From Schmidtea polychroa (taxonomy: Eukaryota): a stretch of 64,000 bases of DNA. The stretch covers positions 70,742,001 to 70,806,000 of the forward strand of contig CM097887.1 of the NCBI GenBank assembly GCA_044892525.1. The letters run 5' to 3'. Below the pieces are notes generated by a model. That model was not told the origin of the DNA and ran no database searches. It was given only the letters and a program-made list of their open reading frames with translations. Below are positions 24,382 through 49,884 of this stretch, piece by piece. Every line of letters starts with the position of its first letter. Positions within the stretch are counted from its first letter, which is position 1. The translations under genes and the position numbers were made by a program.

Positions 24382-27300
24382 TGTTGGGCTGAGTCGGAAA
24401 TTTAATCGTTGAAAAATAAGAAAGTAGGGAAGTAGAACATTAAGAAAAATAATAATAAAATAAATAAAATCAGAAATAAAATAGAATAAGATATAAGGAA
24501 GATAATAATTAAGACATAAGAATTAAAACAAAAAATAAAATTAAGAAAAGATTAAAATAGAACAAGTTGACAAATAAATAAAGAGGAATTCAAGAAATAA
24601 TAAGGAAATTAAGGAAATAAATAGAAAAACATATTAAAAATAAAGAAAATAAGGAAAAAACAACCTAAAAACAAGAAAATTATATTAAATTAATAGAAAT
24701 AAGCGGTACTCAACTCTGATTGGTCCGCACGAATAAGAATTTGATATATATACAACTACCAAAAACATTAAATTTACTGTTAACCCCGAGCATTTCATAG
24801 GTAAGAAAAATGTTTACTGTTTTTACTGTTAACCCCGAGCATTTCATAGACATCTACAACTCACGGAGACTTATTTCAAGGATCAGCAATACAAGTAGAG
24901 CAACAGTTAATTCGAAAAACTTCACAGCAATTCGAACTCAGTCACAGCAATCGACATTCGACGAACTATCATCAGACTAATTTGGAACGACTAACGTTAA
25001 TTTTCCGATTCAGCCTAATTCCATAGTAAGGGATTTTTATTTATGATATTGTTTTTCGAAGTTAATAGTAAATATGTATATTTAATGAGCAATTAAACTT
25101 TTAAATTTAACCAGACTCTCTTTTCATTTGATCCTGAATAACGATTTTGATAAAGTAAATAATTTAAATGTTTAAAAGTATTTATTGGTAACAGGTGAAC
25201 TCTTACATAATTTTTATGGATATTTATTTTGAAGTGATAGTTTTATGATTTCTAATATTAACGAGAAACGTGGCGTTGAGATACTCCATGTCATGGTGTG
25301 AGGTGCCTTCGGGAGCTCAGCCGGTGGACATGGAGTATTTCAATCACGCAGCTAGATTGGGCCGAAATGTGAAGGCTTCTTCACGGGTCCAATTGCTGAA
25401 GGACTTAAAATCTGTCAGAGTACCGAAATATAGACCGAAAGGAAACCTTCTGAAATTTTCGAAAATAGGATATGTGCTTCACAGCGACTGAGGGAGTTCT
25501 CATATTAACTCTGTATTGTCCAGAGTCGTCTTACAAGACATTCATGCCACTTCTGTCTATAAATCCGAACTTACCATGTGGGGGAAAATACCATTAAACA
25601 TCCATCGCTGGTTTTCTAACATATCGAGAAGTTGAAATTGCATTCGGTAGATTTTTGAAAAAGTAACTCTAATTTAGGTCATCTCTTTCAGATGCGACAT
25701 CCAAATCCTAGCATATGATGAGGAATTTACAATAAGGGAAAAATAAAACATAAAACCACAATAATACTGTATTCAATCACATATATTAACAAAATCTGGT
25801 AATACCCATCGAATAATGTTCATGCTGTTGCGTCGAAATATCCACTACTGAAATATGCTTCATAGAGTCTAGTTGGCTGGTTCGTAGAGATCTCCCATCG
25901 TTCAAAAACATCCAATATTGAGGAAATTACGAGTCGTAGTAAATAAATCCAACATCATAAGCTCAGATGGGAATCGACACGCGATGTAACATTTGCAGTT
26001 CGCTCAGTACGGTTGATAGTTACAGCTAGAATTTCCATCGAACAGGCACCCATACATACAGACATACTGCTAACATAACTATGAGTAGCGTCATCCGGTC
26101 AGAAATATGCATGAGAAACAGCAGAATCATTCCGAATGCCTCTCACCGCAGGGAATGCCGCCATGTGTCACCCTCTCTAGGATTCTTAGTGTGTGAGTAG
26201 TAATCAGTGGTCATATTAGATAATGCTGACATGAGATGTGACTTCCAGATGACTGACTCTTAAATTTCACTACTGATAAAGGTCATTCGTACCACTAAAA
26301 AGATAAGCCAAAATAACCAGTAACCGACTACTAAGATAAGAGACTCTCTAAAGTGCACTCATTAAAGATAATTTTGCTTAAATTAAATATTCTAAATAAA
26401 AATCGAAATTGTTGAAGGGGTATTTTAATTAATAACCGAAAATTCAAACCAAACTTTATAACTAAACCATAGGAAGTTTCACCTAAGTGTTGTAGAGGTT
26501 TATCGTAATTCTGATTAGATGTTACAAATAATAGTAGTAGCCTTTGAGCCAAATGTAAATTAACTAAAGCATCCACAGGAATTTTTGGGTTATAAAATAG
26601 CTAGTAATATTGTATTTAAATTTCTCATATTCCATGTAAACTACGTATCGCAATAGAAAACTAAATCCGATAACAAATTATTATGTAATTACAATGTTTT
26701 TACGATGCCATATTTCTACGACGATATCACCGTATGGTATGGATAAGGGGTGATCATAAAATAGTGACGTATAGTTTATACGAAGTTACGAGTTGTTACT
26801 TATTCCGCTACTTGAGGTAAGGGTGCAAGTTTTTACTAGTTGCATTTGGTCCAAAAACCTTATTTTGCATTAGAATAACAACAAATAATCAGCGAAATTT
26901 AAACGAAGTGTAGTATAGGGTATTTGTAATGAAATAGGTTTATTCACTCCGGCATGAACAAATCCGTAAATTGCCTTTATGTGCGATAGATAGAAATCCA
27001 ACTCGAACGCGATAGACGAAAATTAAAATTTTTACAAATAATTTGCATTCGTCAGGGAAGCAATCAGGGCGTTGAGGAATAATTTTTGTAAAGGATACGT
27101 AAAATATTAGTAATCAAGGGTGAAGGGAGGGATCCTGTTTCATCGACTCGTCTTGTTTTCTTCCAGCACTAAGTATCCAATAGCGAATAAACCGTATATC
27201 TGATCCGAAATTTTTGGATATAGTCATCATAGTTTTCTTCTTTAGCCATCCATATGTTATCAAACCACAAATCAGCTCTACGTCCCTGCTTCTCCTGCTC

Positions 27301-28540
27301 AGATAAAAATGCAGTGATTAAAGATCTTCAAGCCCAGATCGGTCGATATAAACGAAAAATCGACGAACTGGAAGGGACATGGTTTAGTCCCGCTCGGATG
27401 AAGGAGATCCAAAAGAAGCTCGATCGTAGCGAGCATTGCCGGGACGCGCTAATATCTGAGAGCCGTGCCCAAAGAAGTCTAATCAGAGAACAATCCGAGG
27501 CACTGCATAAGGTTTACGTGCAGGCGGCTACAACCCGAAAAATAGTGCAGATTCCCATCCGAGAGGCCGATGACATCTTTCCGCCTCATCACAACCTTTC
27601 CTCGAATCCATCTCCACCGTTCAAGAGACCGTGCCAAGACTGCGTCGAAAACGAATTGTCCCCCAAGCGACCAGATGTTGTCGTCACGGGTACCAGTAAG
27701 CCCCCCACTGCTAGTCCATCTGTATCAGTCACCCCTCTGCAAGTGGCATCTTCAAGCAAACCCAAGCGCAAACAACTCTCTCGTGCAGAGCGCAAGAAGA
27801 GACAGCGCGAACGCGCCACTACCAAGCCAAACATCCCATCAATAGAGGACTCAACCAACGGTGGCAACTCTCACGTGTCCATCGACCTAACAACGGGACC
27901 CTCAGCACGAATCATATCAGCCGCTGGCGTAACGTGGGAAGAGAACGCTTCCGAGTTTTTTAACCTCGACGAATTATTCGCCGACGCTGAATGGGAGAAA
28001 CAATAGAACCCCAGTGGCGGTCAGGACGAAGAACAAGGATCCGATCTATGTTGATTATGATGTTTTCTCTTCTTTCGACAAACATTAGTAAAGTGTACAG
28101 CTGAATCCCTGTGTCATAACGTTGAAATTAATAAATCTTGTTGTCTTACACGTTTTCGTTCATGAATAATTAGACTTTAATTAAGTGGGTTGAGTAGAGA
28201 ACCCGCCAGATCTAGTGAGAAATTCCCAATTTGTATTCAGCGAATCCTGATAAGTGGTTGTGTAAGGAAAAGGACGTAAGCCCTTCTAACGGCAGTCGTG
28301 AATGGGAAGTCGAGGCCTCAGCAAGGAGTAGTTTTAAGGCAGAAGCTCACCTGCTTGCTGGCGTCTCGCCTGCATAGTGCAGTACCAACGTGAAGTGATT
28401 CACGGGCACTATGTTGGAAGAAAGTTATGTGGGGTTTCACTCCAGGTTGACAAATCGGTGGCACCTTTTATTCGAGATGGACAATCAACCCTTAGACCCG
28501 TCAACATGGTAGAGTGGTCAGCCGAGGTGCAACCCCAACA
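24382..28540 (+). repeat. 5' LTR (4,159 bp)
   Basis: Starts TGTTGGG and ends CCCAACA (7-bp terminal inverted repeat). Matches 50767-54925 wherever compared. Confidence 0.96.
27254..28006 (+). CDS. LTR-encoded 250-aa protein of unknown function (5' copy)
   Basis: Intact ORF, identical in both LTRs. CxxC plus coiled coil, basic tract KPKRKQLSRAERKKRQRER, and acidic-aromatic C-terminus. A homolog exists at 19678. Confidence 0.75.
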   Translation: MLSNHKSALRPCFSCSDKNAVIKDLQAQIGRYKRKIDELEGTWFSPARMKEIQKKLDRSEHCRDALISESRAQRSLIREQSEALHKVYVQAATTRKIVQIPIREADDIFPPHHNLSSNPSPPFKRPCQDCVENELSPKRPDVVVTGTSKPPTASPSVSVTPLQVASSSKPKRKQLSRAERKKRQRERATTKPNIPSIEDSTNGGNSHVSIDLTTGPSARIISAAGVTWEENASEFFNLDELFADAEWEKQ

Positions 28541-28882: not shown

Positions 28883-29368
28883 ATGACAGAATTCGCGAAC
28901 CAAATGCAACAACTGCTCAAGTTTATCGATATAGAAAACGACTCCCTAACAACACTGACGCATAAAAGAGAAAAAATCAACGCGATATTACTACAAGCAA
29001 TCGGACAAACACCAGTCGTACCTAATCATATGATATTAGCCACAGGCCTAAGTCGCCCAGATGGAAAAATAAACCCCGAAACCGTATATCAGTGGTATCA
29101 AGAGAGATTGAACCACCCAACATTAAATCTAGATTATCAGCGTCTAAAAGACTCACTAAATACAATACCAGATGCAATCGAACAAAAAATACAGGAAAAA
29201 GTTAACCAATTACGAACTTGTATAGCCTGCAAACTCCGTCCTATTCGCGTATTATTCTTGCCGTGTGGACACCTCAGTCACTGTGAAGAGTGTGTAAAAG
29301 ACCTAAAAAGATGCACGATGTGCAAATATGAAATAAAAGAGACCCATATGGTCTATTATGGCGAATGA
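28883..29368 (+). CDS. 161-aa protein with C-terminal C3HC4 RING of IAP/MDM2 type (putative E3 ligase)
   Basis: CIACKLRPIRVLFLPCGHLSHCEECVKDLKRCTMC. Acceptor TTTTCCAACAG lies 2 nt before the ATG. A decayed homolog lies at 21286-22445. Confidence 0.88.
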   Translation: MTEFANQMQQLLKFIDIENDSLTTLTHKREKINAILLQAIGQTPVVPNHMILATGLSRPDGKINPETVYQWYQERLNHPTLNLDYQRLKDSLNTIPDAIEQKIQEKVNQLRTCIACKLRPIRVLFLPCGHLSHCEECVKDLKRCTMCKYEIKETHMVYYGE

Positions 29369-29959: not shown

Positions 29960-30610
29960 AATCCAGCCGGTCAAGGAGGAAGATTGAGCTGTTGAATAGT
30001 GCCAGCCAGTCGTAAGGTCGAGTTGTGAAAAGTCCAACCGATCAGGAAGGAGGAAGATTGAGCTGTTGAATAGTGCCAGCCAGTCGTAAGGTCGAGTTGT
30101 GAAAAAGTCCAACCGATCAGGAAGGAGGAAGATTGAGCTGTTGAATAGTGCCAGCCAGTCGTAAGGTCGAGTTGTGAAAAGTCCAACCGATCAGGAAGGA
30201 GGAAGATTGAGCTGTTGAATAGTGCCAGCCAGTCGTAAGGTCGAGTTGTGAAAAGTCCAACCGATCAGGAAGGAGGAAGATTGAGCTGTTGAATAGTGCC
30301 AGCCAGTCGTAAGGTCGAGTTGTGAAAAAGTCCAACCGATCAGGAAGGAGGAAGATCGAGCTGTTGAATAGTGCCAGCCAGTCGTAAGGTCGAGTTGTGA
30401 AAAGTCCAACCGATCAGGAAGGAGGAAGACTGAGCTGTTGAATAGTGCCAGCCAGTCGTAAGGTCGAGTTCTGAAAAGTCCAACCGATCAGGAAGGAGGA
30501 AGATTGAGCTGTTGAATAGTGCCAGCCAGTCGTAAGATTGAGTTGTTGAATAGTCCAACCGATCAGAAGGAAGAAGATTGAGCTGTTGAATAGTGCCAGC
30601 CAGTCGTAAA
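29960..30610. repeat. Tandem array of about 9 copies of a 74-75 bp unit in the 5' leader
   Basis: Anchor AGTCCAACCGATCAG at 30031, 30106, 30180, 30254, 30329, 30403, 30477 and 30552, plus a degenerate first copy. Confidence 0.95.
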
Positions 30611-31865
30611 GGCCTAGAAAAGCGAGAGATAGCAGTTAAGCTACAATGAGATAATATTTAAATTACTAGTGATATGGAATATTAAAGCTAGCTAGAACAA
30701 ATTGAATGTAATTTTGAAAATTCGAGTTTAGAGAGGAAATAAACGAGCTCGTGGAAAAGAAAATAGGATTATAATGAAAAAGGAAAGGGAAGAAGGAAAC
30801 GAATTAAAGAGATAATAGAAAATAAAGAATAGATGAAACGATGATAATGAGTAAAGAGGAAAGTAACTAACTAACTAAAGGGATCCCAGTGAAGTAGAGA
30901 AACTCTACGGAATATTTTTTTTGGTTAAACCGGGAAAATGCATTTTATTGGTTCCAGAGTAGAACCGAGCGTAATAATAGTGAATATGAAAAGTAAAATA
31001 GCGATAACAGCGCAAAAGGATTAGGAAAATGAAAGGGGGGTAATAAGCAGAGACCGACAACGACCTATTTTTACTATAATTGATAACGAATAGATAATTA
31101 TTACGACTTTATAGATAATTGTTACTACCCCATATAGATAATTTAAAATCGACGGAAAATACGGGCTGATGGGATATTATAACCCGCAGAAAGGATTTCA
31201 CAAAAGATAGGGGAAGCACAAACAGAAACCTAAAAGGTGTCTGTTTTTGAACGTTGTAGAAAGAATGATGAAGTCGTGTAAGCAAATGCAACACGAGATC
31301 ATTTTTTCATTTTAGATATCAAGCCAATCCAGCCAACCAAGACAATCCAGAACCTGCACAAAAGGAATTCGAAGAAATCGACAATCAACCAAGGATAAAT
31401 CCATTCAGAACCCGCACCGAGAGACACAGCAACCGGAAGACTCCCGAACGGAAGAAGTATTAGCAGCCATCTGCCAAGGATTAGAAACACAATCAGAACC
31501 GAACGCGACCAATTCAATAGCCGCTAATTACCAAGAAGCGTAAGAAAGGAATCACGGATAAACCCAATCTTAGATCTTCAAGTAAGCCAGGAGACGTATT
31601 ATTTTCAGGAGACGAATTACAACAACTCAAAAGAGGACGATCCATTAAACATCAAAGAGGAATATCACAAGGATCCAGAAGAACCAATCAAGTACCCATA
31701 TTTGACCAAGAAAATCTCGGATATACCCCTAGTCGATCTCGAAGTAGAGAAAGTCTGTCCGATATCACTAATAGTTTAGCAACGTCAACCGAAGAATTAT
31801 CAGCCCAAAGTTTAGTCACATCGTTAGACAATTTAAAAGAAACAGACGAACCTAGAACACCAATC

Positions 31866-34800
31866 ATGACGAATGTCGTAAAAACCGACGAGTATAAAGA
31901 GAAGTTCAGAGGAGAACCGTTCAACGGAAATGCAAACAAGCTAGCAACGTTCATAACTAATTTTGAAGTTTATATCACTGTGTGTGGATGGACACCCGAA
32001 GCAATTAGTAAAAGGATGCCGTTGTTTTTGTGCGATAGTGCATTAGAGGTATATTTAGAAGCTAAAGAGAGAGACACGAAATTAGAAAAGTGGGAAGATA
32101 TTAAAACATTCCTGAAGAAAACCTTCGGAGCCAGTAAGCCAATCAACCAGGCGTTGGGCGAACTAGCAAATAGGAAACAAAGAGCAAACGAATCGATAAC
32201 ATTATATGCCAGTGAATTGCGGAGATTAGCGAAGAAAGCAATGAATGGAAAATTACCCGAAGAAAATCTGATCGGTTATTTCATAGAGGGATTACGCCGA
32301 GAAGAAGTAAGAGCCTCAGTAGGTTGTCAAATGTGCAAAACATTAGAGGAAGCCATAGATTGGGCTACAAGATGCGAGCTCCACCTTCCAGCTCAAATGA
32401 ATATTATGCAAGAGGAGGGAAGGATAGCGACAGCAATAGCGAAAGCGGATAACGGAGATAACAACAATCAAGAACCGAAAATGAATCAATTTATACCAGG
32501 AGCGCACCAAATTTTCAAACCACCACAAGGACGATCAAACGGGAATAATGGTAATCGTAACAACCCGAATAATGAGAACAATTTCAATAATCGGCGAAAT
32601 ATGAACGATAACAAGCAGTGCCGAACATGCGGTAAACCAGGACACTGGGACAGAGATTGTTATAGAAATTCAAATTGTAATCGTTGCGGACGGCGTGGAC
32701 ATACCGAAAATGTATGCCAATTGCGAGGCTGTTTTAACTGTGGTCAGCCAGGTCACATCTCCAGAGATTGCCGAGAAAGGGGCCAACAACAACGACCACC
32801 ACAGCGAAATAATAATTGTATAGCGAATCCGCAACGACAAAGTAACCCTAACGAAGGAAAACAAATGAACGTTATGCAGGAAATTTCGCAGATGAAACAG
32901 ATGATGCAACAAATGATGAGACCAAGACAAGAATCAGCACCACAACAAACCCAGAATATACGTATGATGAGGAGTACCGAAAATCTCAACAATTATGAAG
33001 TGCATCAACATGTACAAGAATGGCAAAGGCTACAGGCCGAGGAAGAGAGGATAAAACAAGAACGCAACCAACAACGACAAGAACAACCATTGCGAATAAA
33101 TATGATGAAGTTAGTAAAAGACATGAAGAGCCAGTATTGCTACAATTACGGGAAAAGCCCAAGGGTAGTACCCACGACTGAACCAGAAAAGGTAAAAGAA
33201 ATAACAACGGAAATGGAAACAGAGAATTCAACCACGATTTTAAAAGGAAACCAGAGAATTCAGAAAATATTCTGGAAAAAGATAAAGGATAAAATCGAAA
33301 AAGAACATAATAAAGCGAAAACCGAGACAGAAGATGAAAATAACAAGAGCAAGGAACAAACCAGTCAACTAAACCACCAAATGCTACAAGAATCAGAATC
33401 AGAAGAAACAACAATATTCGAAAGAAAGAAACTAAAGAGAGTACCAAGGATGAGAAACTTGCAAATCAATATGATGAAAAGGACAAAAGATGTAGCATCG
33501 TCAGACGAAGAAGAAGATTATGTAAGTAGTTTGGGTGGAGAAATACTACAGCCGAATGAAATAAGCGAACCCCCAAAAGGGGAAATCAAAGAGGAAGAAA
33601 GCGGAAACGAGATAACCAGTGAAAGTGAAAACGAAGATATCGAAATAAAGTTGAGAAAAGCAAGGGAGGAAGCGATAAAACAGGTAGCCGAAATACTCCC
33701 AGTAGTAGTGAGAAACCAAGAGTTCATCGACGTAATACCATTCAGGCGATTCGTGCAAAAAGTGATGAAATTGGAAAGAAACGAGAAAGATCTAATACCA
33801 AATGAGGAAAAATCAATTATAAAAAATTATATGGAAAAAATGAAGCAGGCCGATACCACGCGGTATGTAATAAAAATTGGAACGAGTAGAGGACTTGAAA
33901 GAATGTGGATAAAAAATACAGTCACCGACGAACTTTTCGATTGGATACGAGAGCATTTGGGAAGTTCGAGAAAGAAAGAATATCTGTATCAATACCAAGG
34001 AGAACAGATCAAACCAGATATGCACTTAGTAGATGCACTAATATGGCCAGGAGAAACGCAAATACTGAAGTTGCATAAAGAAAAACAACCAGCCAACCTT
34101 TACGATTGGGCTAAAGATGCCAAGGCAGAATATGATTTTAATATCAAATTGAAATTAGAACAAATAAAACAATGTACTCTGAGACGAAACCTGGATAAGC
34201 TGATCAAACAAATTCAAGAACAAGTAGAAGACAACTGGGATTTACTCATCACCAGACGAGCCCCAGCCATGTACGAACTAATGAGCCGGTTGCGAGATAC
34301 AGAAATGCTCCGAATGAGTGATTGGAGAACCATAAATTTGATCCACAAATATGGAAGGTTAAAAGAAACCCAGCCACAGAGGTTAGAAATAACCATATGG
34401 TTACCGAACGAAGAAAAACGACGAATAAAAATGAGCAATCAGAGTACAGTAGATGACTTGGTATCAAAAATAAACCAAGAGATAACGGAAAAGGTACGTA
34501 GCGAAAGTAGTGATGGTATGGTGGATGATGTAGTCATGATGTACGATAAGATAATATTACGAGCGGAGGACGACACCTCGTTAAGCGAAATGGGTATGTG
34601 GGACAATCACCAGATAATCAGGATAGTACCAATGGATGAATTTCGAACAAGAGATGTAACCTATCAAAAAGAAATACGAGACCGGATGAAAACGTTATAT
34701 CAAAAATCTACGGAAATAATTAAAATCCACCAACAATGGTTAAAAGAAAAAGAACTACAAGGAAAAATCACGAAATTAAGCACCAGATCCTGCAGACGAA

Positions 34801-36893
34801 CCCCATGGGAAAGAGTGTGGAATGCAGAAAGTAAGGAATGGGAAATCCGGAAAGGAACCTTCGTGGAAACAGACATTGGTGAGACAGAAAGTGAATCGGA
34901 GGAAGAAGAAGAGGAACCTCCAAAATATGAAGAGGAAGCAAGGGAACAGACATCAGATGACGAAGGCGAGACGGATGTCACATCAGAAAGCGAAAATGAA
35001 GCGAGACATATTCATGCAATGAGGAAAAAGGAACGTGAATATGCTGATATGGACGGCGAGGAAGCGACGGAAGCAAGAGAACGAGAAGAGAAAGAAAGAT
35101 ATAAACAATTAGGCGATATCTTAGCAATGGGAGCGAAAAATCAAAAACGCCAAGTAGTAGCGTTGGCTAACATCATCTTAAAGACATCAGAGAATATCCA
35201 CAATCTGAGAGGAATGGCAAAGGCAATAGAGGAATACCGGCAATATAATGAATGGTATCCAGAACAGCTAGAACAAATTATTCGAAAATGGAGAAATCAG
35301 GAATGGGCACAAGACACCCAGGAGAGGTATCACATCCGAATCAAGTATCCGGACAAGAGCATCGAGGAACTAGAGGTGCATCCAACAACAAAAATTAGAG
35401 AATTAAAAAAGAAATTAGCATATGAAACTCCATTCCATCTGCAACTGTTCGGAAAATCACTAGACGATAATGCAGACGTCGGGATAACACCCATGAGATT
35501 GGAAGAGACAAATGTATTAACAATGGCAGAAACGTTGGGAAAACCGTTAAAAAGGAAAAGTAAAATTATTAAACCAACAAAAGGCAGTTTGAGTACTCCA
35601 AGTCCGAACAAAGCACCAAGTAAATCTAATGAAACTGAAGAAGTTGAAGAGATAATCCTGGAAGATAGTGACGATGAACCAGGAGAAAGATCACCGCTAT
35701 TAGTGAGATGGCCGACAGGAGCCGAAATGTGGACTAATAACCAGCCATCAACGAGTTATCAACAACCAACGAAACTGAACATCAAAGAAATCATCGACAA
35801 TACTACGGAAACCGAAACGGATGAACAATTCCAGAAGCAAAGAGAACCAACGAAAGTAACACCAGAAAGTCAAACCGACAAAATAATAGACGAATGGAAT
35901 GAGTGGCTAAGAAATAACGATAGCTCATTACCCAGAACGGATAACGAAAGAAATCCGAATTACGAAAATACCAGAGAAGCCGGAACGATGATGGAAAAAC
36001 GGGCAAAAGGAAGACCCAAGAAACAAGGAGAAAAGTCTGAGTTCAAAACCAAAGAACAATTAAAGCAAGAACAAGGGCAAGTTCGATTAGAAAAATTGGA
36101 TAAAATAGTATGGGATCTAAAGGAAGCCCAACCAACGATCGAAAGAGGAGAAAAATGGATACGAGAATTGTTAAAAGATATGTTAATAATAACAAACCCA
36201 CAACTTAGACGTTTGTGGCAACGGAAAGTAGCCAGTACGGAAGCTAGACAATTATGGCACACCATTTCGGGGATAATCCCAAAGTTAATCAAAGAGAAAA
36301 CGAAAACCACCAAAACGGATTGGGACGAAACAAAGAAAGTGATTGAGCAGCTCACGACAAATGCAAACGATGACGAACATCACCTAGTGGTAATCACGTA
36401 TTTGATGTATAATTTGATGGGACTAGCTGCGAGGAAAATACCAAATAAACAATTTGCAAATCATGTGGAAATGACCGTTTCAATCATAGAGAATACTATT
36501 GAACCACATATTATTCGTGCCGGAGGATGGAAAAGACTGATACAAGCGCCACGGAAAAATGAGCAAGAAAGGTCGATGCAAGTTAGATTGAAAAAACTGT
36601 TAAATGAACTAGAATGGGAACTACCGATGAAAGATCCCGCAAGCAGAAAAGCATCAATAAATTCGTTAATGATGACTATGATGATATGGATGTTGTGCAC
36701 AAGTGGAGCAACGGGTTTCACCATCTACGATTGTGATAACATGATAATGAGAGATAAATACTCATTGAGAGACATAGAAGAATGCAGACAAGCCTCACCC
36801 AACAAATTGGACATCGTGAGAACAAAAGTTACTTACCATGTATATCAAGAATCAGATTTCATCAGAACGCAAGCAAGGGAATGCGTAGTATAA
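31866..36893 (+). CDS. gag: Polyprotein part 1: Gag with 3 CCHC knuckles, ubiquitin-like domains, Bcl-2-like domain, signal peptide and start of the glycoprotein
   Basis: Retrotransposon Gag pattern (RKQRANESITLYASELRRLA...YFIEGL) and knuckles CRTCGKPGHWDRDC, CNRCGRRGHTENVC, CFNCGQPGHISRDC. It ends at a TAA (36891-36893) that is in frame with the next ORF. Confidence 0.93.
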   Translation: MTNVVKTDEYKEKFRGEPFNGNANKLATFITNFEVYITVCGWTPEAISKRMPLFLCDSALEVYLEAKERDTKLEKWEDIKTFLKKTFGASKPINQALGELANRKQRANESITLYASELRRLAKKAMNGKLPEENLIGYFIEGLRREEVRASVGCQMCKTLEEAIDWATRCELHLPAQMNIMQEEGRIATAIAKADNGDNNNQEPKMNQFIPGAHQIFKPPQGRSNGNNGNRNNPNNENNFNNRRNMNDNKQCRTCGKPGHWDRDCYRNSNCNRCGRRGHTENVCQLRGCFNCGQPGHISRDCRERGQQQRPPQRNNNCIANPQRQSNPNEGKQMNVMQEISQMKQMMQQMMRPRQESAPQQTQNIRMMRSTENLNNYEVHQHVQEWQRLQAEEERIKQERNQQRQEQPLRINMMKLVKDMKSQYCYNYGKSPRVVPTTEPEKVKEITTEMETENSTTILKGNQRIQKIFWKKIKDKIEKEHNKAKTETEDENNKSKEQTSQLNHQMLQESESEETTIFERKKLKRVPRMRNLQINMMKRTKDVASSDEEEDYVSSLGGEILQPNEISEPPKGEIKEEESGNEITSESENEDIEIKLRKAREEAIKQVAEILPVVVRNQEFIDVIPFRRFVQKVMKLERNEKDLIPNEEKSIIKNYMEKMKQADTTRYVIKIGTSRGLERMWIKNTVTDELFDWIREHLGSSRKKEYLYQYQGEQIKPDMHLVDALIWPGETQILKLHKEKQPANLYDWAKDAKAEYDFNIKLKLEQIKQCTLRRNLDKLIKQIQEQVEDNWDLLITRRAPAMYELMSRLRDTEMLRMSDWRTINLIHKYGRLKETQPQRLEITIWLPNEEKRRIKMSNQSTVDDLVSKINQEITEKVRSESSDGMVDDVVMMYDKIILRAEDDTSLSEMGMWDNHQIIRIVPMDEFRTRDVTYQKEIRDRMKTLYQKSTEIIKIHQQWLKEKELQGKITKLSTRSCRRTPWERVWNAESKEWEIRKGTFVETDIGETESESEEEEEEPPKYEEEAREQTSDDEGETDVTSESENEARHIHAMRKKEREYADMDGEEATEAREREEKERYKQLGDILAMGAKNQKRQVVALANIILKTSENIHNLRGMAKAIEEYRQYNEWYPEQLEQIIRKWRNQEWAQDTQERYHIRIKYPDKSIEELEVHPTTKIRELKKKLAYETPFHLQLFGKSLDDNADVGITPMRLEETNVLTMAETLGKPLKRKSKIIKPTKGSLSTPSPNKAPSKSNETEEVEEIILEDSDDEPGERSPLLVRWPTGAEMWTNNQPSTSYQQPTKLNIKEIIDNTTETETDEQFQKQREPTKVTPESQTDKIIDEWNEWLRNNDSSLPRTDNERNPNYENTREAGTMMEKRAKGRPKKQGEKSEFKTKEQLKQEQGQVRLEKLDKIVWDLKEAQPTIERGEKWIRELLKDMLIITNPQLRRLWQRKVASTEARQLWHTISGIIPKLIKEKTKTTKTDWDETKKVIEQLTTNANDDEHHLVVITYLMYNLMGLAARKIPNKQFANHVEMTVSIIENTIEPHIIRAGGWKRLIQAPRKNEQERSMQVRLKKLLNELEWELPMKDPASRKASINSLMMTMMIWMLCTSGATGFTIYDCDNMIMRDKYSLRDIEECRQASPNKLDIVRTKVTYHVYQESDFIRTQARECVV

Positions 36894-38475
36894 AAAAAGG
36901 TACTCGCATATTACTGTGGACAATATTCGTATTCGACTCTTATACTACCCGGTCTGGATAAAGAAATCGTATCAATACAACGAGAGGATTGTAAAGAGCT
37001 ATTTAGAACCGGAGCGCTAAAAATGCATAACGGAGTGACAATTCACGGACAAACTGGAATGATTAAAACCGAAAGTGTTTACGTATCCGGAAAAGTAAAA
37101 TCATCAGATGGGTCATGTAACGGGGGGACGTATACGATCCGAGGCGAGGTAATATCGGGAGTTGTAGTGATCGAGTCTTACACGGTCGAATTAAAAGAAT
37201 ACGAAGCGCAATTTGACGCAAATAATTACCAAATGAAGACCAACCCAGCGTGTAAAGCTACAGAAAACGTATGCAGGACAGGAGTATCAACTATAATCTA
37301 TGAAGCTAATACCCAAAAATGCCGACTCCAACTGTTAAAAAGTGCTTTGTTCAATGAAGTAAAAGGAGAAATATATGAGAACGAGAACGACGAGGATGGA
37401 AACGACAGAGTGAGAATGCGAAATGGAAAACCAATGCCACCATCTCCCAGAGAAAAGAGACTTTCAACGCAGAAGACACCAACAGCATTAATCACAGACG
37501 ATCCAGATCTAGGTATGAGATTTATCAAAGAGAAAGAAACCACCAAATGTGACAGTATAGTATATAAAACCAATTACGCAGGTATCTACATGTCGAGACA
37601 AATAATCGATAGAGCAGTGGGAAAGATAGCAACGGAGGACGTAAAACTATACTTATATGCAAATAATAAAATGGATTTTCTATTTCATCGTGGACAAACG
37701 ACCTTGCAAAAAGTATATTACGATCTGATACAAAACGATTGTTCATTGAATAAAGAAATATTGAAAACAAAGCTAGCTATTGCGATAACGCACCCCGATA
37801 ACACGATGCCATCACTCCCATTACCAGATGGACACTTTGGTAGAATGGTAGGAGAAGTGATGTACACATACCAGTGTACCAAGACGTATGCACGAATGCC
37901 AGAAAAATCCATACTACCCGAAAAGAGATGTGCAAATGAATTAGAAATTCGTTATAAAGGACAAAATCGATTCGTCCAACCAGTCACTAGAATTATGAAT
38001 CCAGTGGGTTTCTACCCAAATCTCTTTAACTGTTCTAATGCATACGGACCTTTGTATGAAAGACCCGATGGGAAATGGATGATGTTACCGGGAAAAACCA
38101 TATCCGAGGAACCCAAGAAATTTGGATTAATAGAACTCGCCACAGAGCTGGATTTCAAACCTATAGACGTGTCAAACGGTGGTATGTATTCCCCAGAAGA
38201 TCTAGAAACAGCACGACTTAACGTACTCTTCCCAGCCAGACGAGAATCCATTTTGTCTAATATGGTCACAATAACTGGGGGCACAAACTATCAATCAGGC
38301 CCGAATTACGAGCTGCTATTATCGCCAGACCATTTTCAACAAGCTACGTCAAACATGATGAAAGCAATGTGGGGAAGATTCTTAGTTTTTGGACAAATGA
38401 TGGCCGGGATATTAGGGATCATACTCATAATTCAGATAGTCAGAGTAATACTAACACAAATGTTAGCTTGTTTCG
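36717..38475 (+). other. Chuvirus-like viral envelope glycoprotein domain (ectodomain plus TM), spanning the in-frame TAA
   Basis: FTIYDC after a hydrophobic segment, then ECVV..YYCG..SYS, DGSCNGGTY, CDSIVYKTN, KLYLYANNKMDFL, GEVMYTYQC, CANELEIRY...FVQPVTRI, GGMYSPEDL...LFP and WGRFLVFG followed by a TM helix. This is the Cys and motif order recalled for Chuviridae glycoproteins. Confidence 0.8.
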
Positions 38476-41400
38476 ATATATACAAGCGGGAAAAGAAAGT
38501 TAATTGGAAAATGATAGTAGGTTTCTTACCATTTTTAGCTAAGACCATGGTATTACATGGCCACTCAAAAGACATCCATCGGATAAAGCGATTGATAAAA
38601 ATATTAACAAAGATTAAAGGAACCGACGAAGAAGTAGGCAGACGATTCCGGAAAGTAATGTACGATGAAGCAACAAGACGACAATTGAAAAAGAATAAGC
38701 CAAAATTCTTGGACCGATTTAGAAGCCAATCATCTAACAGCGATAGTGACGACGATGATAACGGGAACGATAAATGTCTTTATCCAAACAGAAACCCAAA
38801 CGAAAAACCAATGGAAACGGCACCATATTGGGAAAAGGAAAAGACAAACACCTGGATCGCCAATGGAAGCTATATACCACCGGATATCGTGGGACCACAA
38901 ACAGCTTTGACCATGACACAAAATATGTATCCGCAATTACCGAGTCAACCCGGTATGCATTATATGCCAACACGACGTACCAAAAGTGTAGATCAAGCAG
39001 ATGACGTAAGAACAATAGCAGCGATGAGTTTACCTGGAGGTCCAGCAGTGACAGTCATGATCCAAATCAATGGTCAAGAAACCAATGCTATGATAGACAC
39101 AGGAGCTAATGTATCAGCGATAGCGATTAATCAAATTCCCAGTAAACACTGGAAAGATATCGAATCAACAACAATTCACATCATAGCATGTAGTAAAGAA
39201 ACAGTGGACGTGGTCGGAAGATGGTGGACTACATTGAGATACCAGGACAACGAAATTGAAACGTATTTGGCAGTAATACCAAAACTTAGCGTACCATGCA
39301 TAATCGGAACGGATTTGATGCCAGAATTGTTAAAAGAAGTCGTAATTGACTTAACAACCATGTGTTTAAAAGACAAAACCGGTAGAATATGCAAAATGAA
39401 TGCAGTCATCAGATGTCCAGAAAAAATAATAGTACCAGCAAAATCGCAGATGATTTGTCAGATAAAAGTGGATACGGGTATGGAAGGAGAAGTTATCTTT
39501 GAACCAAGCAAGTCATTCGAAAAGCGACGAGAATTACCACTCGCAAGAGAAATAATCACAATAAACCAAGAAGGAGTGATACCGCTCAACATCACGAATT
39601 TCGAAGAGGAAGACAAAATCATTTATGAGAACGAAAAATTGGGAAGATTGACCCCAATGATGGACATAGAATTACCGAAAGTGACCAACGAGATGATCAA
39701 AGATGATGAATTATGGACAATAGATAGTATGTTGTTGACGAATGATGAAAAGAAAAAATTACACCGATTGTTGGTAGAATATAAAGATATATTCGCCATC
39801 TCAGACTTAGACTTGGGTACATGCGATGTTACCCTACATGCAATACCCCTCATAGATGAAACTCCAATTGCATTAAGACCATACAAGCTAGCAGAAATGC
39901 AAAAAGAAATAGCCGAAGCAGAAGTACAAAAGATGCTAGACGCAAAAGTAATCGAACCAAGTTGCTCACCCTGGCAATTCCCAGTGGTCATGGTAAAAAA
40001 GAAAGATGGCACCCAACGATTCTGTATCGATTATCGGAAGTTAAACGCAGTGACCAAGAGAGATACCTATCCATTGCCGGACATCAATGAGATGTTATTG
40101 ATGTTGCAAGGGGCAGCATATTTTACTTCTCTAGATCTAAAAAGTGGATACTGGCAGGTTAAAGTCAAAGATGAGGACAAAGAGAAAACAGCTTTCACGT
40201 TGGGACGAGATCTATATCAATTCAGGAAAATGCCATTTGGACTGACTAACGCACCAGCATCATTTCAACGGTGTATGAACTTTGTCACCCATGGAATCAA
40301 ACAATGTATGGTATATATTGATGATTTACTAATCTATTCAGCGACATTTGAACAACATCTGGAAGATATCCGAAACGTATTTATTAGATTAAGACAGTGG
40401 AAACTCAAACTCAAACCATCAAAATGCGATTGGGCAAAGGAAAAAGTCACGTTTTTAGGACACATAGTGTCAGCTAAAGGAAAGGAGCCAGATCCAAGAA
40501 ACATTGAGAAAATAAAAACATGTCCAGCACCGAAAACTGTCACCCAAGTTCAGGAATTTCTAGGATTATGCGGATACTATCGCAAATTTATCAAAAATTA
40601 TGCAGGAATTGCAAAACCAATCCAGGAACTAGTAAAGAAGGACATTTCGTTCTTATGGGGGAAGGAACAACAAGAGGCGTTTGAAACGCTGAGAGACAAA
40701 CTAATCGAAGCACCTATCCTCGTACACCCAGATTTTAAGAAGCCATTTCTATTGGCAACGGATGCAAGCGGGTACGCGGCAGGCGCGATTCTGGGACAAT
40801 TGGACGATGAGGGAAAAGAGAGAGTAATCGGGTATTACAGTCGAACATTCAAAAAGCACGAAAAGAACTATTCGGTAACAGAACGAGAAGCATTGGCTAT
40901 AATACAAGCTATCAAACACTTCCGATATTTACTATGGGGACATGAGATATGCATAACCACAGACCATCAACCATTAGTGTGGTTAGGGCAACATAAAGAA
41001 GCGTCCAGTAGACTGATGAGATGGGCCATGCAATTGCAAGAATACTCCCCATTTATAAAATTTAAAGCGGGAAGAGCAAATGCCAACGCCGATTGTATGT
41101 CAAGATTTATTTTCCCAGATTTGGTGGATTCAGAAATGCAACGCATATGCTTAATAGTAGCGGAAGATTTGGATTTCTGTCAATTGCGAAAGGACCAACA
41201 AGAGGACGCGGAATTAAAACAAATTATCGATTATATAAAAACCGGACAGACAGATGTATATGCGAAAGACCAAAAATTAAAAGAACATATGGATAAACAC
41301 CGACACCGATATATTATAGAGAAAGATTGGTTGCTGATAATGGATGGGGAAAAACGATTAATGTGTATACCGGAAAACCGACGAAAAGAGTTACTAACGC

Positions 41401-44400: not shown

Positions 44401-45719
44401 GAAAAGAGTTTGAATTCGAAGCAAAATTAGCAAGAAACAGAGTGCTAACAGCATATCGCAGATTATTGAACGATATAAATGTCGAGGACGACATTTTAAA
44501 CGACAGCGGGGGAGATAAACACGATGACAATAACGGAAAAGGCCGAAAGGAGGATAAAGAGAAAAGAGAACAGGAGGAGGGTAAACCGGAAAACAAGGAT
44601 TCGGATACGAAAAGAGAGGGAAACAGCCCGGGAACTAAGACCAAAGAGGAGGAAAAATCGAATAATGGAAAACAGAGGGTATGCCTACCTTTCACTAACA
44701 AAGAAATAGAGACAAATATGATATTAATGATAATTATGCTTACCATGATAGAGTTAGTAACAGCTCATGGAGGGACGAGGACGATAAAAGAAACCAAAGA
44801 AGCGGAGAATCAAGATAGCAAAGAGGACGAACTAAAACAAGAAAAGAAAAAGCAAGCACAAGAGCAGCAGTGGGATTTAAAGGAAGAATGGGACTTAAAG
44901 GAAAGGTGCATACTAGGAAGATGCATGTCTAGAGCGTATCAGAAACTAGTACTGATAAATGAGGACACAGAACCAATAACAGAAGTAAGAATACAAGAAG
45001 CATACCGAAACCGAGACGGGAAAAGAATAACGAACGTTAAAGGAAAAGAGGTACACCTAGGAAAAGGTGGCGAAGTAGTAATAACGCAGCTCCAACCAAG
45101 AAAAGAGCACAAAGTCTGTATTTCAAGATTGGGACCGGGTGAGAGATGCCATCAATATGTGACGCAGCAGCAGCCCCCGAAGGAATATACGGTTTGTATC
45201 TGGAGAAACGAATCAAAAAGAGAATGCCGACGATACCCGGGGAAAAGAGGAAAGAAAAGGAAAAACCACGACGAAAAGGACGAAGGAGGAAAGCACAAGA
45301 AAACCGGCGAGGAAGCTCAGGACAACTATGTTTCGGAGGAAGAGATGGAAAAAATACAAAAGATGGCAAAGGAGGGTATGAACGAGGAAATAGCAAGAAT
45401 ACGGGAAATGATGAAAGGAAATGGCAAAAGAGGGAACGAGAAAAGTACAGAAGCAATATCAACATTAACAAACCAGGAAAAACCAGAGAGTATAAGCGTG
45501 AAGCAGATGATGTGGATCAGTGGGATAATAATAACAGGGGCATTCCTAATCATAACGGGGGGAACAATAAAAATAATTAAGGATAAACGACATCGCGGAG
45601 AACTAGAGATGACTCGAATCAGAAATTTCCAACATCGAGTGAAACGACCAAGTGATATCAAACAAGAACAGTGGGTGGAGGCCTGGAACGCTCAGCGCCC
45701 TCCAAACTCACGTATATAG
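36894..45719 (+). CDS. pol: Polyprotein part 2: rest of glycoprotein, protease, RT, RNase H, integrase, ankyrin repeats and membrane-anchored C-terminal unit
   Basis: Open frame from 36894 (the ORF track starts at ATG 37023). Motifs MIDTGANVS, YIDDLLI, LATDASG, H..RLGGH...C..C, MDVVGP / TDQG / ERFN and GPYEI. Confidence 0.95.
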   Translation, partial: KKVLAYYCGQYSYSTLILPGLDKEIVSIQREDCKELFRTGALKMHNGVTIHGQTGMIKTESVYVSGKVKSSDGSCNGGTYTIRGEVISGVVVIESYTVELKEYEAQFDANNYQMKTNPACKATENVCRTGVSTIIYEANTQKCRLQLLKSALFNEVKGEIYENENDEDGNDRVRMRNGKPMPPSPREKRLSTQKTPTALITDDPDLGMRFIKEKETTKCDSIVYKTNYAGIYMSRQIIDRAVGKIATEDVKLYLYANNKMDFLFHRGQTTLQKVYYDLIQNDCSLNKEILKTKLAIAITHPDNTMPSLPLPDGHFGRMVGEVMYTYQCTKTYARMPEKSILPEKRCANELEIRYKGQNRFVQPVTRIMNPVGFYPNLFNCSNAYGPLYERPDGKWMMLPGKTISEEPKKFGLIELATELDFKPIDVSNGGMYSPEDLETARLNVLFPARRESILSNMVTITGGTNYQSGPNYELLLSPDHFQQATSNMMKAMWGRFLVFGQMMAGILGIILIIQIVRVILTQMLACFDIYKREKKVNWKMIVGFLPFLAKTMVLHGHSKDIHRIKRLIKILTKIKGTDEEVGRRFRKVMYDEATRRQLKKNKPKFLDRFRSQSSNSDSDDDDNGNDKCLYPNRNPNEKPMETAPYWEKEKTNTWIANGSYIPPDIVGPQTALTMTQNMYPQLPSQPGMHYMPTRRTKSVDQADDVRTIAAMSLPGGPAVTVMIQINGQETNAMIDTGANVSAIAINQIPSKHWKDIESTTIHIIACSKETVDVVGRWWTTLRYQDNEIETYLAVIPKLSVPCIIGTDLMPELLKEVVIDLTTMCLKDKTGRICKMNAVIRCPEKIIVPAKSQMICQIKVDTGMEGEVIFEPSKSFEKRRELPLAREIITINQEGVIPLNITNFEEEDKIIYENEKLGRLTPMMDIELPKVTNEMIKDDELWTIDSMLLTNDEKKKLHRLLVEYKDIFAISDLDLGTCDVTLHAIPLIDETPIALRPYKLAEMQKEIAEAEVQKMLDAKVIEPSCSPWQFPVVMVKKKDGTQRFCIDYRKLNAVTKRDTYPLPDINEMLLMLQGAAYFTSLDLKSGYWQVKVKDEDKEKTAFTLGRDLYQFRKMPFGLTNAPASFQRCMNFVTHGIKQCMVYIDDLLIYSATFEQHLEDIRNVFIRLRQWKLKLKPSKCDWAKEKVTFLGHIVSAKGKEPDPRNIEKIKTCPAPKTVTQVQEFLGLCGYYRKFIKNYAGIAKPIQELVKKDISFLWGKEQQEAFETLRDKLIEAPILVHPDFKKPFLLATDASGYAAGAILGQLDDEGKERVIGYYSRTFKKHEKNYSVTEREALAIIQAIKHFRYLLWGHEICITTDHQPLVWLGQHKEASSRLMRWAMQLQEYSPFIKFKAGRANANADCMSRFIFPDLVDSEMQRICLIVAEDLDFCQLRKDQQEDAELKQIIDYIKTGQTDVYAKDQKLKEHMDKHRHRYIIEKDWLLIMDGEKRLMCIPENRRKELLTQYHDGRLGGHMSSKKTLARMKQKYFWPTLTEDVTEWVKNCLTCATRKNTGSKWKAPLTPMPVPIEPMTMISMDVVGPLPESDKGNVYILVITDFLTKFPEAFAMPDQKAKTIAKILVEEICCRYGTPKQILTDQGTNFMSEIMSEVTNYFKIAKLRTSPYHPQTNGMTERFNGTLIQMLSNYVDRHQRDWDEYINLCLMAYRMSIHASTKMSPFKLMYGRECNMPMDLEYQPPISQYMEIDDYVTKFKERMQEIWETAGLNIKFYQESYKDLHDRKKNVKQHTFQTGDWVMIETPELIPGTTKKLQRNGKGPYEILFVGETNVRVKLVNNPFTRPIYVNVARCKSIPKTATSQPEGRTLTTRSQTYRMNMMQQLAEPITGRLGIQPSEAEKIVKEVKIKIPGWAKDRLDFEILGGLLTMIENYANRERTHPLLRVVKSQWPILFTITDHYGDTPLHKLMKVGNNEQILETIEAFHDCKRSTEQTNNQGYTPLMIAANRGKTKDIITALLDTGSKITTQDHERKNALHHAIRGRSTEAFTSLMELLSYEDNREVGNMYDGLLTAIKEKLTTITGILITWRNPIRNDYMINVNEAFTRGENTLMREAMKGHQLFEIPNQLLERGIKFTNHKDEQLAKKRIDTFEKSLFQFTNQVRNKYWETVSVLYMMDTMNNIRENYLDIIQILTAEERINNPNGKKMKIKYEKSRESKSTTNQTVTNNVIETKSMSIDQEAIIRKAKEVFFEEMLELPDEIILSKIIKAVHTYARDQTTDLDIGKIKTFLPRAFTMVTKDSRTPLQQAILAAKENRAITIVRILGEMGEETNTKNEQGETAMMYAAITKIHPKTLHILHQSGSKLDEKSNEGNSTLDWATIQPNLEMIRFICKNATKEEVENMCKNTSQFQWNTVRKNLEAMKLLLTWRVPQNNKYAINVNEFYENGENAMVKNTLTKGGTPKIILIVLNREDLKFTQNQNEQQRIGKHRRMQLRELVKEWNRKRHAATGRKEFEFEAKLARNRVLTAYRRLLNDINVEDDILNDSGGDKHDDNNGKGRKEDKEKREQEEGKPENKDSDTKREGNSPGTKTKEEEKSNNGKQRVCLPFTNKEIETNMILMIIMLTMIELVTAHGGTRTIKETKEAENQDSKEDELKQEKKKQAQEQQWDLKEEWDLKERCILGRCMSRAYQKLVLINEDTEPITEVRIQEAYRNRDGKRITNVKGKEVHLGKGGEVVITQLQPRKEHKVCISRLGPGERCHQYVTQQQPPKEYTVCIWRNESKRECRRYPGKRGKKRKNHDEKDEGGKHKKTGEEAQDNYVSEEEMEKIQKMAKEGMNEEIARIREMMKGNGKRGNEKSTEAISTLTNQEKPESISVKQMMWISGIIITGAFLIITGGTIKIIKDKRHRGELEMTRIRNFQHRVKRPSDIKQEQWVEAWNAQRPPNSRI
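39027..42500 (+). other. pol: Pol core: aspartic protease (DTG at 39096), RT (YIDD near 40313), RNase H, integrase
   Basis: Catalytic residues appear intact. Order and motifs (FCIDYRKLN, FTSLDLKSGYWQV, MPFGLTNAPASFQR) are typical of Ty3/Gypsy. Confidence 0.96.
42745..44260 (+). other. Two ankyrin-repeat modules fused downstream of integrase
   Basis: YGDTPLHKL, QGYTPLMIAA, ERKNALHHAI; then SRTPLQQAI, QGETAMMYAA, EGNSTLDWA. Each block is followed by a similar L.TWR....Y.INVNE...GEN segment. Confidence 0.9.
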
Positions 45720-46324: not shown

Positions 46325-47713
46325 ATGGATAAACGACAAAGAGAAGAGTTCAGAGAGATTGTCGAGCAAGTCCGAAAATCTACAACGATCAGAATACACA
46401 AACATGTTATGTGCGGAATATGTGAAAAGTTGTTAAAGGAACCTCACCAAACGCAATGTGGATGCAGAGTATGTAAAGAATGTATCAGTGAAGCAATAAA
46501 GAATAGACCACAAAGGTGCCCGGTGTGTAAAGAGACACTAATATCGAGTTTAGAAGACACTAACGAGGATAAAGCCGCAGTGAAAGACATGTTAAACACC
46601 AACCTGGGATGCAAAAATGCCCCATGCGAATGGAAAGGAGTAATATGGAAGGTAGTACAACATATGGGAGAATGTATGTACAGAATTGGCCAGTGTGAAA
46701 GGTGCCATAAAACCATTCGAGCAAGCGAAGAAAAAGAGCATCAAAGGCAGTGTGAGGAGAGATTGGAAAGATGTGAACACTGTGGAGAAATAGATACGTG
46801 GATAAATCTCACCCTCAAACATCACAATGTCCAAGAGGAGAGAGTATGTGCGGAGTTCAGTGGGGAATGCCCAAACGGATGTAACCAAGGGGAAACAATG
46901 AAGGTGGCACAGCATCTAAGGGAATGCGAAAAGAAAAGAATGACATGTGTACTAGGTAGATGGGGTTGTCAGAAATTACTACACCGAGGTGAGTTACCAC
47001 ATCATTTAGTAGAAAATGCTTCAACTCACGCAGAAATGTGGTCGACTGCGTTACAAGAAAGCGAAGAGAAAGTAAAACAAATGGAGATAGAGATAACATC
47101 GTTGAAAGTGTTAGTCAAAGAACTACTAGAAGAAAGGAAAGCGTTCGAAGAAGCCCGAGCAAACATAAAGATGCAAATAAACCGAACAGAAATTAGTAAT
47201 AATCAGGCCAAGGAGCTACATCAGAAAATACGGGAAATAAATCTAAATGAGATAACCCCAACAGCACCCTACATATGGAAAATAACGGGAGTAAAAGAAA
47301 GAATACGAAAAGCAAAAACCGGAGAAGAGACAAGAATAACAAGTCCTACATTCCATTCTTGGAAAAATGGGTACAAAATGAAAATGAAGATATATCCCAA
47401 CGGGGACGGAACCGGATTAGATACGCACTTTTCGATTTTCTTTCTGTTATGTAAAGGAGAATACGACGAAATATTAGAATGGCCGTTCCAGGCAAAAATC
47501 GATATTACTCTGATGAGCAACCAAAGTATACATGAGCAAAGCTTCAAAACAACGGGGAATCAAATAGCTTACCAGAGGCCCCTCAACGAAGAAGGATCAG
47601 CAACAGGAGCACCTACGTTCATCTCACAACAAAGAGTAGAAGATATGGCGAGAAATGATACCATATATATCAAGATGACCGTGAGGAAAGAGGAGAAGGG
47701 TAGAACGGAATAA
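46325..47713 (+). CDS. Intronless TRAF-family protein (RING, TRAF zinc fingers, coiled coil, MATH/TRAF-C)
   Basis: CGICEKLLKEPHQTQCGCRVCKEC...CPVC; CKNAPCEWKG, CPNGC and C.LGRWGC fingers; YIWKI...SPTF...GYKMKMKIYPNGDG.G..THFSIFF.LCKGEYD..LEWPF...QRP...G.PTFI. Confidence 0.95.
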   Translation: MDKRQREEFREIVEQVRKSTTIRIHKHVMCGICEKLLKEPHQTQCGCRVCKECISEAIKNRPQRCPVCKETLISSLEDTNEDKAAVKDMLNTNLGCKNAPCEWKGVIWKVVQHMGECMYRIGQCERCHKTIRASEEKEHQRQCEERLERCEHCGEIDTWINLTLKHHNVQEERVCAEFSGECPNGCNQGETMKVAQHLRECEKKRMTCVLGRWGCQKLLHRGELPHHLVENASTHAEMWSTALQESEEKVKQMEIEITSLKVLVKELLEERKAFEEARANIKMQINRTEISNNQAKELHQKIREINLNEITPTAPYIWKITGVKERIRKAKTGEETRITSPTFHSWKNGYKMKMKIYPNGDGTGLDTHFSIFFLLCKGEYDEILEWPFQAKIDITLMSNQSIHEQSFKTTGNQIAYQRPLNEEGSATGAPTFISQQRVEDMARNDTIYIKMTVRKEEKGRTE

Positions 47714-48962: not shown

Positions 48963-49130
48963 GGGTGGATGAAAAGATGAAAAACTAAAAACCGGGACGT
49001 ATATCCCAAACAAAAAAATTAAAGTATTGTAAAAGTATTCAAGGGACTGTAACCCAAACTATTAAATTTTATATCAATGTATACGTATAAGTCGCACTAT
49101 AGCGCACCATTAACTGTACATATTATAGAT

Positions 49131-49829: not shown

Positions 49830-49884
49830 ATTAAGGGTCATTAAAACCAATTGTAAATAAACATAATGAATGTATAATAGTATC

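Follow-up and report, generated by a model that had tools for sequence, protein, structure and literature searches.

Can a single hydrophobic helix serve both a Bcl-2-like domain in front of it and a viral-type glycoprotein behind it? This question is raised by a locus in the window, by which we mean the whole stretch of 64,000 nucleotides of Schmidtea polychroa DNA analysed here. The initial annotation had described a divergent Bcl-2-like domain about 40 residues ahead of a hydrophobic segment, and had proposed that cleavage behind this segment leaves a tail-anchored Bcl-2 protein on one side and the glycoprotein on the other. Our analysis points to a modified answer: the region probably encodes a Bcl-2 fold within a Burro-type polyprotein, and the probable env signal helix would be left on Gag-Bcl-2 as an ER tether after the predicted cut.

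The locus is a giant LTR retrotransposon of 30.5 kb (24382-54925, + strand) with a Gag-Env-Pol layout. Both LTRs are 4159 bp long and 99.9% identical to each other, and the target-site copy comprises 4 bp. The element contains the following features.

24382..28540, + strand: 5' LTR (TG...CA, 4159 bp), preceded by an AAAT target-site copy at 24378-24381
28883..29368, + strand: accessory ORF with a RING finger at its C-terminal end (Pfam zf-C3HC4_3, E 3.4e-11)
31521..36893, + strand: first part of the polyprotein frame, with Gag, CCHC knuckles, a long spacer, the Bcl-2 domain, the predicted signal peptide and the first 58 residues of env (Pfam Retrotrans_gag, E 1e-9; zf-CCHC, E 5.5e-11)
36891..36893, + strand: in-frame TAA interrupting env 58 codons into env, present in one of the 30 close copies L001-L030
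36894..45719, + strand: remainder of the polyprotein frame, with env, protease, RT, RNase H, integrase, ankyrin repeats and a predicted second membrane protein (Pfam)
46325..47713, + strand: TRAF-like accessory ORF with RING and MATH domains (Pfam TRAF-mep_MATH, E 6.7e-27; zf-C3HC4)
50767..54925, + strand: 3' LTR, followed by an AAAT target-site copy at 54926-54929

The frame 31521-36893 spans 1790 codons and, beyond the one TAA, continues in phase over a further 2941 codons. From 1808 candidates in the genome, 136 scored matches with 93-100% identity were obtained, many of them with a 4732-aa open frame. The window copy is broken in env by a copy-specific stop, and programmed read-through at 36891 was rejected because just one of 30 copies carries this codon. 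An origin of the locus from a large DNA virus, a group that the initial annotation had named as carrying divergent viral Bcl-2 proteins, was likewise rejected in view of the LTRs, Gag, RT and integrase; the locus encodes the polyprotein of an LTR retrotransposon. No GT..AG joint was present among the 11 listed, and the element was covered by RNA contigs in four of 12 runs, observations that carry no weight either way.

Judged by its layout, the element is of the Burro type. It is a Ty3/gypsy element of ~30 kb with long LTRs, and one polyprotein, split in the window copy by one stop, carries Gag-BCL2-env-PR-RT-RH-IN followed by ankyrin repeats, with MATH/RING cargo in addition. According to the accessible part of PMC6431247, which cites Jurka 2007 and Grohme 2018, planarian Burro (GYPSM1) is a giant Ty3/gypsy element that shares the size of ~30 kb, the single polyprotein of 4,732 aa, Gag-CCHC, the ankyrin repeats and the MATH/TRAF cargo, the TRAF part being a downstream ORF in the window element. 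The same text already reports the BCL2-like motif and an env located in frame between BCL2 and protease. Transcription of BURRO1 upon smedwi-2 knockdown is described in the accessible part of PMC8532177. That Burro carries a Bcl-2 domain, and that this domain lies ahead of env, is thus already on record; the present analysis adds better support for the fold and a new topology that can be tested.

Within the first part of the frame, the region in question is organized as follows.

36000..36023, + strand: basic GRP motif, as read in the sequence
36120..36548, + strand: predicted Bcl-2-fold domain with seven predicted helices (model, VIA, Foldseek and profile)
36369..36380, + strand: BH1 position with DDEH opposite NWGR (alignment with the BH1 region of Bcl-xL)
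36522..36530, + strand: BH2 GGW, invariant in eight of eight members and in 30 of 30 close copies

The + strand frame reads IEPHIIRAGGWKRLI with GGW at 36522-36530, then 37 residues, then SINSLMMTMMIWMLCTSG-ATG up to 36716 and FTIYDC from 36717, which confirms the arrangement of a GGW-ending helical region and a hydrophobic segment. The GRP motif resembles an AT-hook; in family B, P0002, P0007 and P0014, too, it precedes the Bcl-2 domain.

Taken alone, the window protein is a borderline match to Pfam Bcl-2 (E 0.035-0.063), its 14-15 bits lying below the curated cut-off of PF00452 (31.4 bits), and single-sequence searches with the window domain retrieved no Bcl-2 protein from the PDB, no Atlas match and one relative only. 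Genome searches in which Pfam Bcl-2, the fusion family and a fragment from family D served as queries led to four more families (B-E), and a few family-B copies score 31-33 bits against PF00452. Once relatives at 18-20% identity were included, eight of eight members matched PF00452 at E<=1, the best with 3.4e-7. Profiles made of Burro-type sequences only and free of host Bcl-2 proteins, one of eight sequences and one of 17, had Bcl-xL/Bcl-2 in all 60 PDB rows listed, with best E values of 2.4e-5 and 3.4e-7, respectively. When the Burro profile was compared with 11 non-Burro Bcl-2 proteins, hhalign returned 97% across 73 columns. Out of 1.84 billion representatives, a profile search picked up 16 proteins, 11 of which are Burro-like and five ordinary Bcl-2 by sequence. 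In every relative that spans the junction, the Bcl-2 domain is followed by a linker, then by basic residues and a hydrophobic helix, and finally by xxx[YF]DC.

Conservation of the BH motifs is uneven. GGW, checked across related elements, is well kept (G, G and W in 17, 19 and 18 of 19 rows), and the first BH2 tryptophan, present in 15 of 19 rows, is H in the window family. The segment that had been assigned to the BH1 position indeed aligns with the BH1 region of Bcl-xL, and the reported absence of NWGR was borne out: W occurs in none of 20 rows, G is retained in one and replaced by D/E in 14, and the R position holds K/R in 13. An aromatic residue in alpha-5 (Y/F) is found in all 20 rows. 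Of the canonical pro-survival features, BH2 GGW is thus present and BH1 NWGR is missing.

Structure prediction agrees with the profiles. A first model, for which eight sequences including linker and helix were used (pLDDT 50.7), had no clear match in the fold search, Bcl-2 chains being mixed with generic bundles at a Z of about 7. With a second model of the domain alone, based on 17 sequences (pLDDT 72.1), a VIA search of 48,161 chains placed Bcl-2 family members at all ranks from 1 to 21, the best having Z 12.2, an rmsd of 3.2 and 131 of 143 residues aligned to Bcl-xL; the first unrelated chain followed at Z 8.8 with 74 residues aligned. Because these Z values fall in a range flagged by the tool for helical proteins, our assignment is based on the coverage of the full domain and the agreement with sequence profiles, not on Z alone. 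All chains listed by Foldseek belong to the Bcl-2 family (prob 1.00, best E 8.8e-3, TM 0.47-0.66), with zero matches for the second model at E<=0.001. The predicted model has the helical bundle (alpha1-alpha8) with a hydrophobic helix at its centre. Going by this model and the profiles, 36120-36548 almost certainly encodes a Bcl-2 fold, in line with the divergent Bcl-2 domain of the initial annotation. Cellular and viral Bcl-2 proteins (Bcl-xL, A179L, BHRF1, KsBcl-2, M11L) reach Z 8-12 against the model, and DPV022 reached Z 7.1 with the first one. Common to them and the Burro domain are the predicted helical bundle, the BH2 GGW and a hydrophobic helix C-terminal to the domain. By contrast, the Burro domain lies within a polyprotein, lacks NWGR and a stop past the helix, has a longer linker, and is followed by a helix that appears homologous to an env signal peptide.

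Could such a domain be a mere passenger, that is, a captured Bcl-2 gene kept only because it lies in frame within the polyprotein? Pooled over three sister pairs, dN/dS amounts to 0.19 for the Bcl-2 domain, 0.28 for the linker, 0.12 for the signal and 0.06 for the start of env. The domain value is not far under that of the linker, as a passenger would have it, and since the linker is constrained as well, 0.19 says little on the Bcl-2 domain alone. However, GGW, the alpha-5 aromatic and the fold are retained across families at 15-26% identity while linker length varies freely, and we regard a passenger as very improbable.

The region between the domain and env, and env itself, comprise the following features.

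36549..36644, + strand: hydrophilic linker of variable length, unalignable across families (alignment)
36645..36716, + strand: predicted internal signal peptide of env with a basic n-region, a Met-rich h-region (~36657-36698) and a c-region up to ATG, predicted cut at 36716/36717 (pattern analysis only)
36717..38555, + strand: env, a Monjiviricetes/gB-type fusion glycoprotein (PF24664, E 7.6e-60)
~38379-38474, + strand: predicted env transmembrane segment, with a weaker hydrophobic stretch at ~38505-38555 (hydropathy of a natural open copy)

The helix is very probably the internal signal peptide of env, as far as sequence comparison can tell. In five of five families PF24664 begins to match within the helix, at position 3-6 of the model, and the same holds for L139 and L141. 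The pattern around ATG|FTIYDC resembles a signal peptidase site, as had been suggested. Among 14 junction sequences (seven from this genome and seven from the profile search, fragments short of the junction being left out), position -1 is A/G/S/C/T in 13, position -3 is small in 12 and position -2 is small in just four, these counts being non-independent trials because the sequences are related. Basic residues near -25 to -21 precede the hydrophobic run. Basic n-region, h-region and small residues at -3/-1 together give the pattern of a cleavable ER signal. A second candidate cut lies three residues further on, with Ala at -1 in 12 of the 14 sequences; it is absent in the window family. Searches for stand-alone viral glycoproteins that bear an N-terminal signal themselves found none for the window env and none in viral_contigs; with the env of family C seven glycoproteins were obtained, and the three inspected are partial or Burro-like. 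As no stand-alone glycoprotein was retrieved, the comparison of the helix with env signals is based on the coordinates of the Pfam model.

A relative that may lack the Bcl-2 domain altogether bears on the age of this signal. L141, one of three loci from a metagenome scan, carries Gag-signal-env-PR-RT-IN in one 2693-aa frame and had no Bcl-2 match with three profiles, in contrast to the control L139, which matches strongly. The env helix thus appears to exist independently of Bcl-2, with the proviso that L141 is one locus, the tree is unrooted and a loss in L141 is possible. We judge the signal role to be older than the anchor role; Bcl-2 probably entered ahead of an existing signal, which it borrows as an anchor. 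A comparable arrangement is repeated behind the integrase, where a signal/TM pair was seen in four of four families scanned and in L141.

44718..44771, + strand: second internal signal-peptide-like segment, past integrase and ankyrin repeats (hydropathy; counterpart in families B, C, E and L141)
45507..45569, + strand: putative C-terminal transmembrane segment at the end of the second luminal domain

Alignment of the helix with the start of the glycoprotein model, its presence in L141, its repetition behind the integrase and its distance from GGW (20-56 residues in Burro, as compared to 13-25 in seven stop-terminated Bcl-2 tails) all speak against the earlier view that it is the tail anchor belonging to Bcl-2 itself. 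There is no stop past the helix, which would become C-terminal only through cleavage. Hydropathy is compatible with either role: KD19 ranges from 1.03 to 2.43 in the 14 Burro segments and from 1.03 to 2.32 in the seven tails, and because these ranges overlap fully, hydropathy cannot tell a signal peptide from a tail anchor. This overlap would also suit true dual use, in which the helix is a permanent tail anchor and the element protease frees Bcl-2 from Gag as a classical anti-apoptotic, BH3-binding viral Bcl-2. Family C, with 20 residues from GGW to a 17-residue core, has the spacing of an ordinary tail anchor, and Bcl-2 is the last domain ahead of the helix in 14 of 14 sequences measured. 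Against this, the hydrophobic core has just 8-13 residues in six of the 14, often with charged residues close behind, L141 possesses the helix without Bcl-2, and an anchor inserted co-translationally ends up in the ER, not in the mitochondrion. The eroded BH1 can be read both ways. Its Arg position is still K/R in 13 of 20 rows, and poxviral DPV022 binds Bak, Bax and Bim despite having no recognizable BH motifs (PMC11209288, accessible part). By contrast, its Trp is absent from all 20 rows and D/E stands in place of its Gly in 14, and Bax binding is lacking in the Bcl-xL mutant with the three changes G138E/R139L/I140N (PMC5348979, accessible part). On these grounds true dual use seems rather unlikely to us.

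Returning to the helix as env signal, we propose the following sequence of events. Gag through Bcl-2 would be made in the cytosol. The helix would then open the translocon, and env would pass into the lumen and be freed by the predicted cut at ATG|FTIYDC. The env transmembrane segment would bring the chain back to the cytosol for Pol, and the second signal/TM pair would give rise to a second membrane protein. From what is known of ER translocation, the cut should leave the helix on Gag-Bcl-2 with its C-terminus luminal, in tail-anchor orientation on the cytosolic face of the ER. The idea of one helix for two products holds insofar as the upstream product would keep the helix in this topology; it does not hold as a design specific to Bcl-2. 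Nor would the product be a free tail-anchored Bcl-2 protein, as it forms the end of a Gag fusion of ~1,700 residues.

The tether would persist unless and until it is cleaved off by the element protease or by signal peptide peptidase. The chance that the helix is a lasting anchor falls a little short of even. It is conceivable, with somewhat lower probability, that the anchor is an intermediate and Bcl-2 ends up soluble, because signal peptide peptidase removes the helix or the element protease cuts the linker. The long, hydrophilic and unalignable linker of 20-56 residues and the short, polar-flanked h-regions fit such a release, although no protease site was identified and a linker as short as that of family C offers hardly any space. 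A precedent is the HCV core protein, which is cut by signal peptidase before signal peptide peptidase removes its anchor (PMC6468556, accessible part).

What the tethered domain does is a separate matter. Apart from the core helix of Bcl-2, nothing in the 1790-aa Gag-side frame reached KD15 1.7, which leaves the signal helix as the only evident link of Gag to a membrane. This, together with a fold that is kept while BH1 is eroded, would suit a structural role in which the Bcl-2 fold and the signal remnant resemble a matrix or leader, tie Gag covalently to the env membrane and support assembly and budding at the ER. Foamy-virus budding, which requires binding of the cytoplasmic Env leader peptide to Gag (PMC3667135, accessible part), offers a parallel. 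However, in L141 Gag, signal and env are arranged in the same way although Bcl-2 is missing, so a Bcl-2 fold is not required for tethering, and the remaining cargo of the element (TRAF-like, RING) suggests host modulation; we deem a structural role unlikely. It is tempting to speculate further, at a similarly low level of probability, that the captured fold, fused between Gag and the env signal peptide, is a membrane-anchored matrix or leader coupling capsid assembly to an ER membrane that contains the fusogen and a second, FN3-like attachment protein, and that Burro is an enveloped virus whose entire particle arises by cleavage of a single membrane polyprotein with five segments. On balance we lean slightly towards the Bcl-2 domain being a host modulator, with about half of this expectation falling to classical BH3-groove binding. 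Most likely, it would act at the ER as a non-canonical modulator that dampens cell death or innate signalling of the host, which fits the TRAF-like and RING genes also carried by the element.

The domain list of Burro has been published, and our study proposes how a chain of ~4,700 residues might yield capsid, fusogen and enzymes. The topology put forward here would comprise a pair of internal signal peptides and a pair of luminal domains, with Gag-Bcl-2 and Pol in the cytosol, and predicts cut sites that can be tested. In addition, what had been a weak 'BCL2-like motif' can now be described as a complete predicted fold in which BH1 is systematically altered. The accessible part of PMC6431247 makes no mention of an internal signal peptide, membrane topology, an eroded BH1 or a post-integrase signal/TM pair in Burro, and no paper on Burro internal signal peptides, a tether or anchor role or a second membrane protein was found in the literature searched, subscription papers, supplements and Grohme 2018 lying outside its scope. 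GAG-ENV-POL elements with an HSV/gB-type env are known from flatworms, nematodes and bryozoans as errantiviruses (PMC13524379, accessible part). They have the gene order and env class seen here, and their ectodomain lies between a signal peptide and a TM or between two TMs; the words Burro and Bcl are absent from the main text of that paper, the supplements being outside the scope.

The closest functional parallels come from two unrelated viruses. In HCV, the internal signal sequence of E1 is left on an upstream cytosolic structural protein, the core (PMC6468556, accessible part), as we propose here for Gag-Bcl-2, and in foamy viruses a cytosolic extension of the env signal is tied to Gag (PMC3667135, accessible part). 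The Burro sequences are unrelated to both; in Burro it is a predicted Bcl-2 fold that precedes the signal, and the link to Gag is covalent. The likeness is one of analogy only. If the tether is removed, Burro would offer a further instance, in a different context, of what is familiar from the HCV core; if it lasts, a retroelement would be using the signal peptide of its envelope protein as the anchor of a cell-death regulator.

The polyprotein of the window element ends in a predicted second membrane protein, whose position is as follows.

44718-45569: second internal signal-peptide-like segment followed by a luminal domain and a transmembrane (TM) segment, at the polyprotein end, 3' of the integrase

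The same unit closes the polyprotein in families A, B, C and E and in L141, a locus from the metagenome scan (loci: window, L111, L108, L138 and L141). It is possibly an attachment protein. The luminal domain of family C matched FN3-family clusters (Atlas, score 0.88), which we regard as a lead only; Pfam gave no support for FN3 in this domain. The available part of the published account of planarian Burro elements (PMC6431247) does not mention a signal/TM unit after the integrase.

L139, a Bcl-2-positive metagenomic locus, carries an additional signal/TM pair between env and RT (frame residues 1582-1779); its frame also has a signal-like segment close to the distal terminus (residues 3017-3036). 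Because of this extra pair, the predicted signal/TM cassettes look modular. An additional hydrophobic stretch is present immediately upstream of the env signal peptide in L141, whose frame is located as follows.

L141:440-8518: Gag-env-pol element without Bcl-2

One metagenomic copy contains a stop (L140:3058-3060) within the linker separating the Bcl-2 domain from the signal peptide, which may reflect either a broken copy or separate genes.

Bcl-2-like sequences also occur elsewhere in the genome. One dispersed, multi-copy gene (L046-L051, L059 and L060) appears to be interrupted by a short in-frame intron, and its hydrophobic tail is terminated by a stop. Another dispersed family (L053-L058), comprising near-identical, intronless ORFs in 152-aa frames, looks element-borne. 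Seven near-identical Bcl-2 gene copies (L031-L037), in which both NWGR and GGW are intact, are clustered on one contig (G000:C4, about 89.9-90.8 Mb).

The window element contains further features.

29973-30641: tandem array with units of about 74-75 bp, between the RING ORF and gag
27254-28006 and 53639-54391: 250-aa ORF inside each LTR
47907-50538: three more accessory ORFs of 351, 250 and 222 aa

Pfam returned no match for the LTR ORFs and only weak, below-cut-off matches for the three accessory ORFs. Upstream of the Bcl-2 domain, the stretch at about 35330-35500 looks ubiquitin-like by eye; a Pfam scan found no match for it. At the corresponding place in Burro, a Ubi2/SUMO-like domain is reported in the part of the published account available (PMC6431247).
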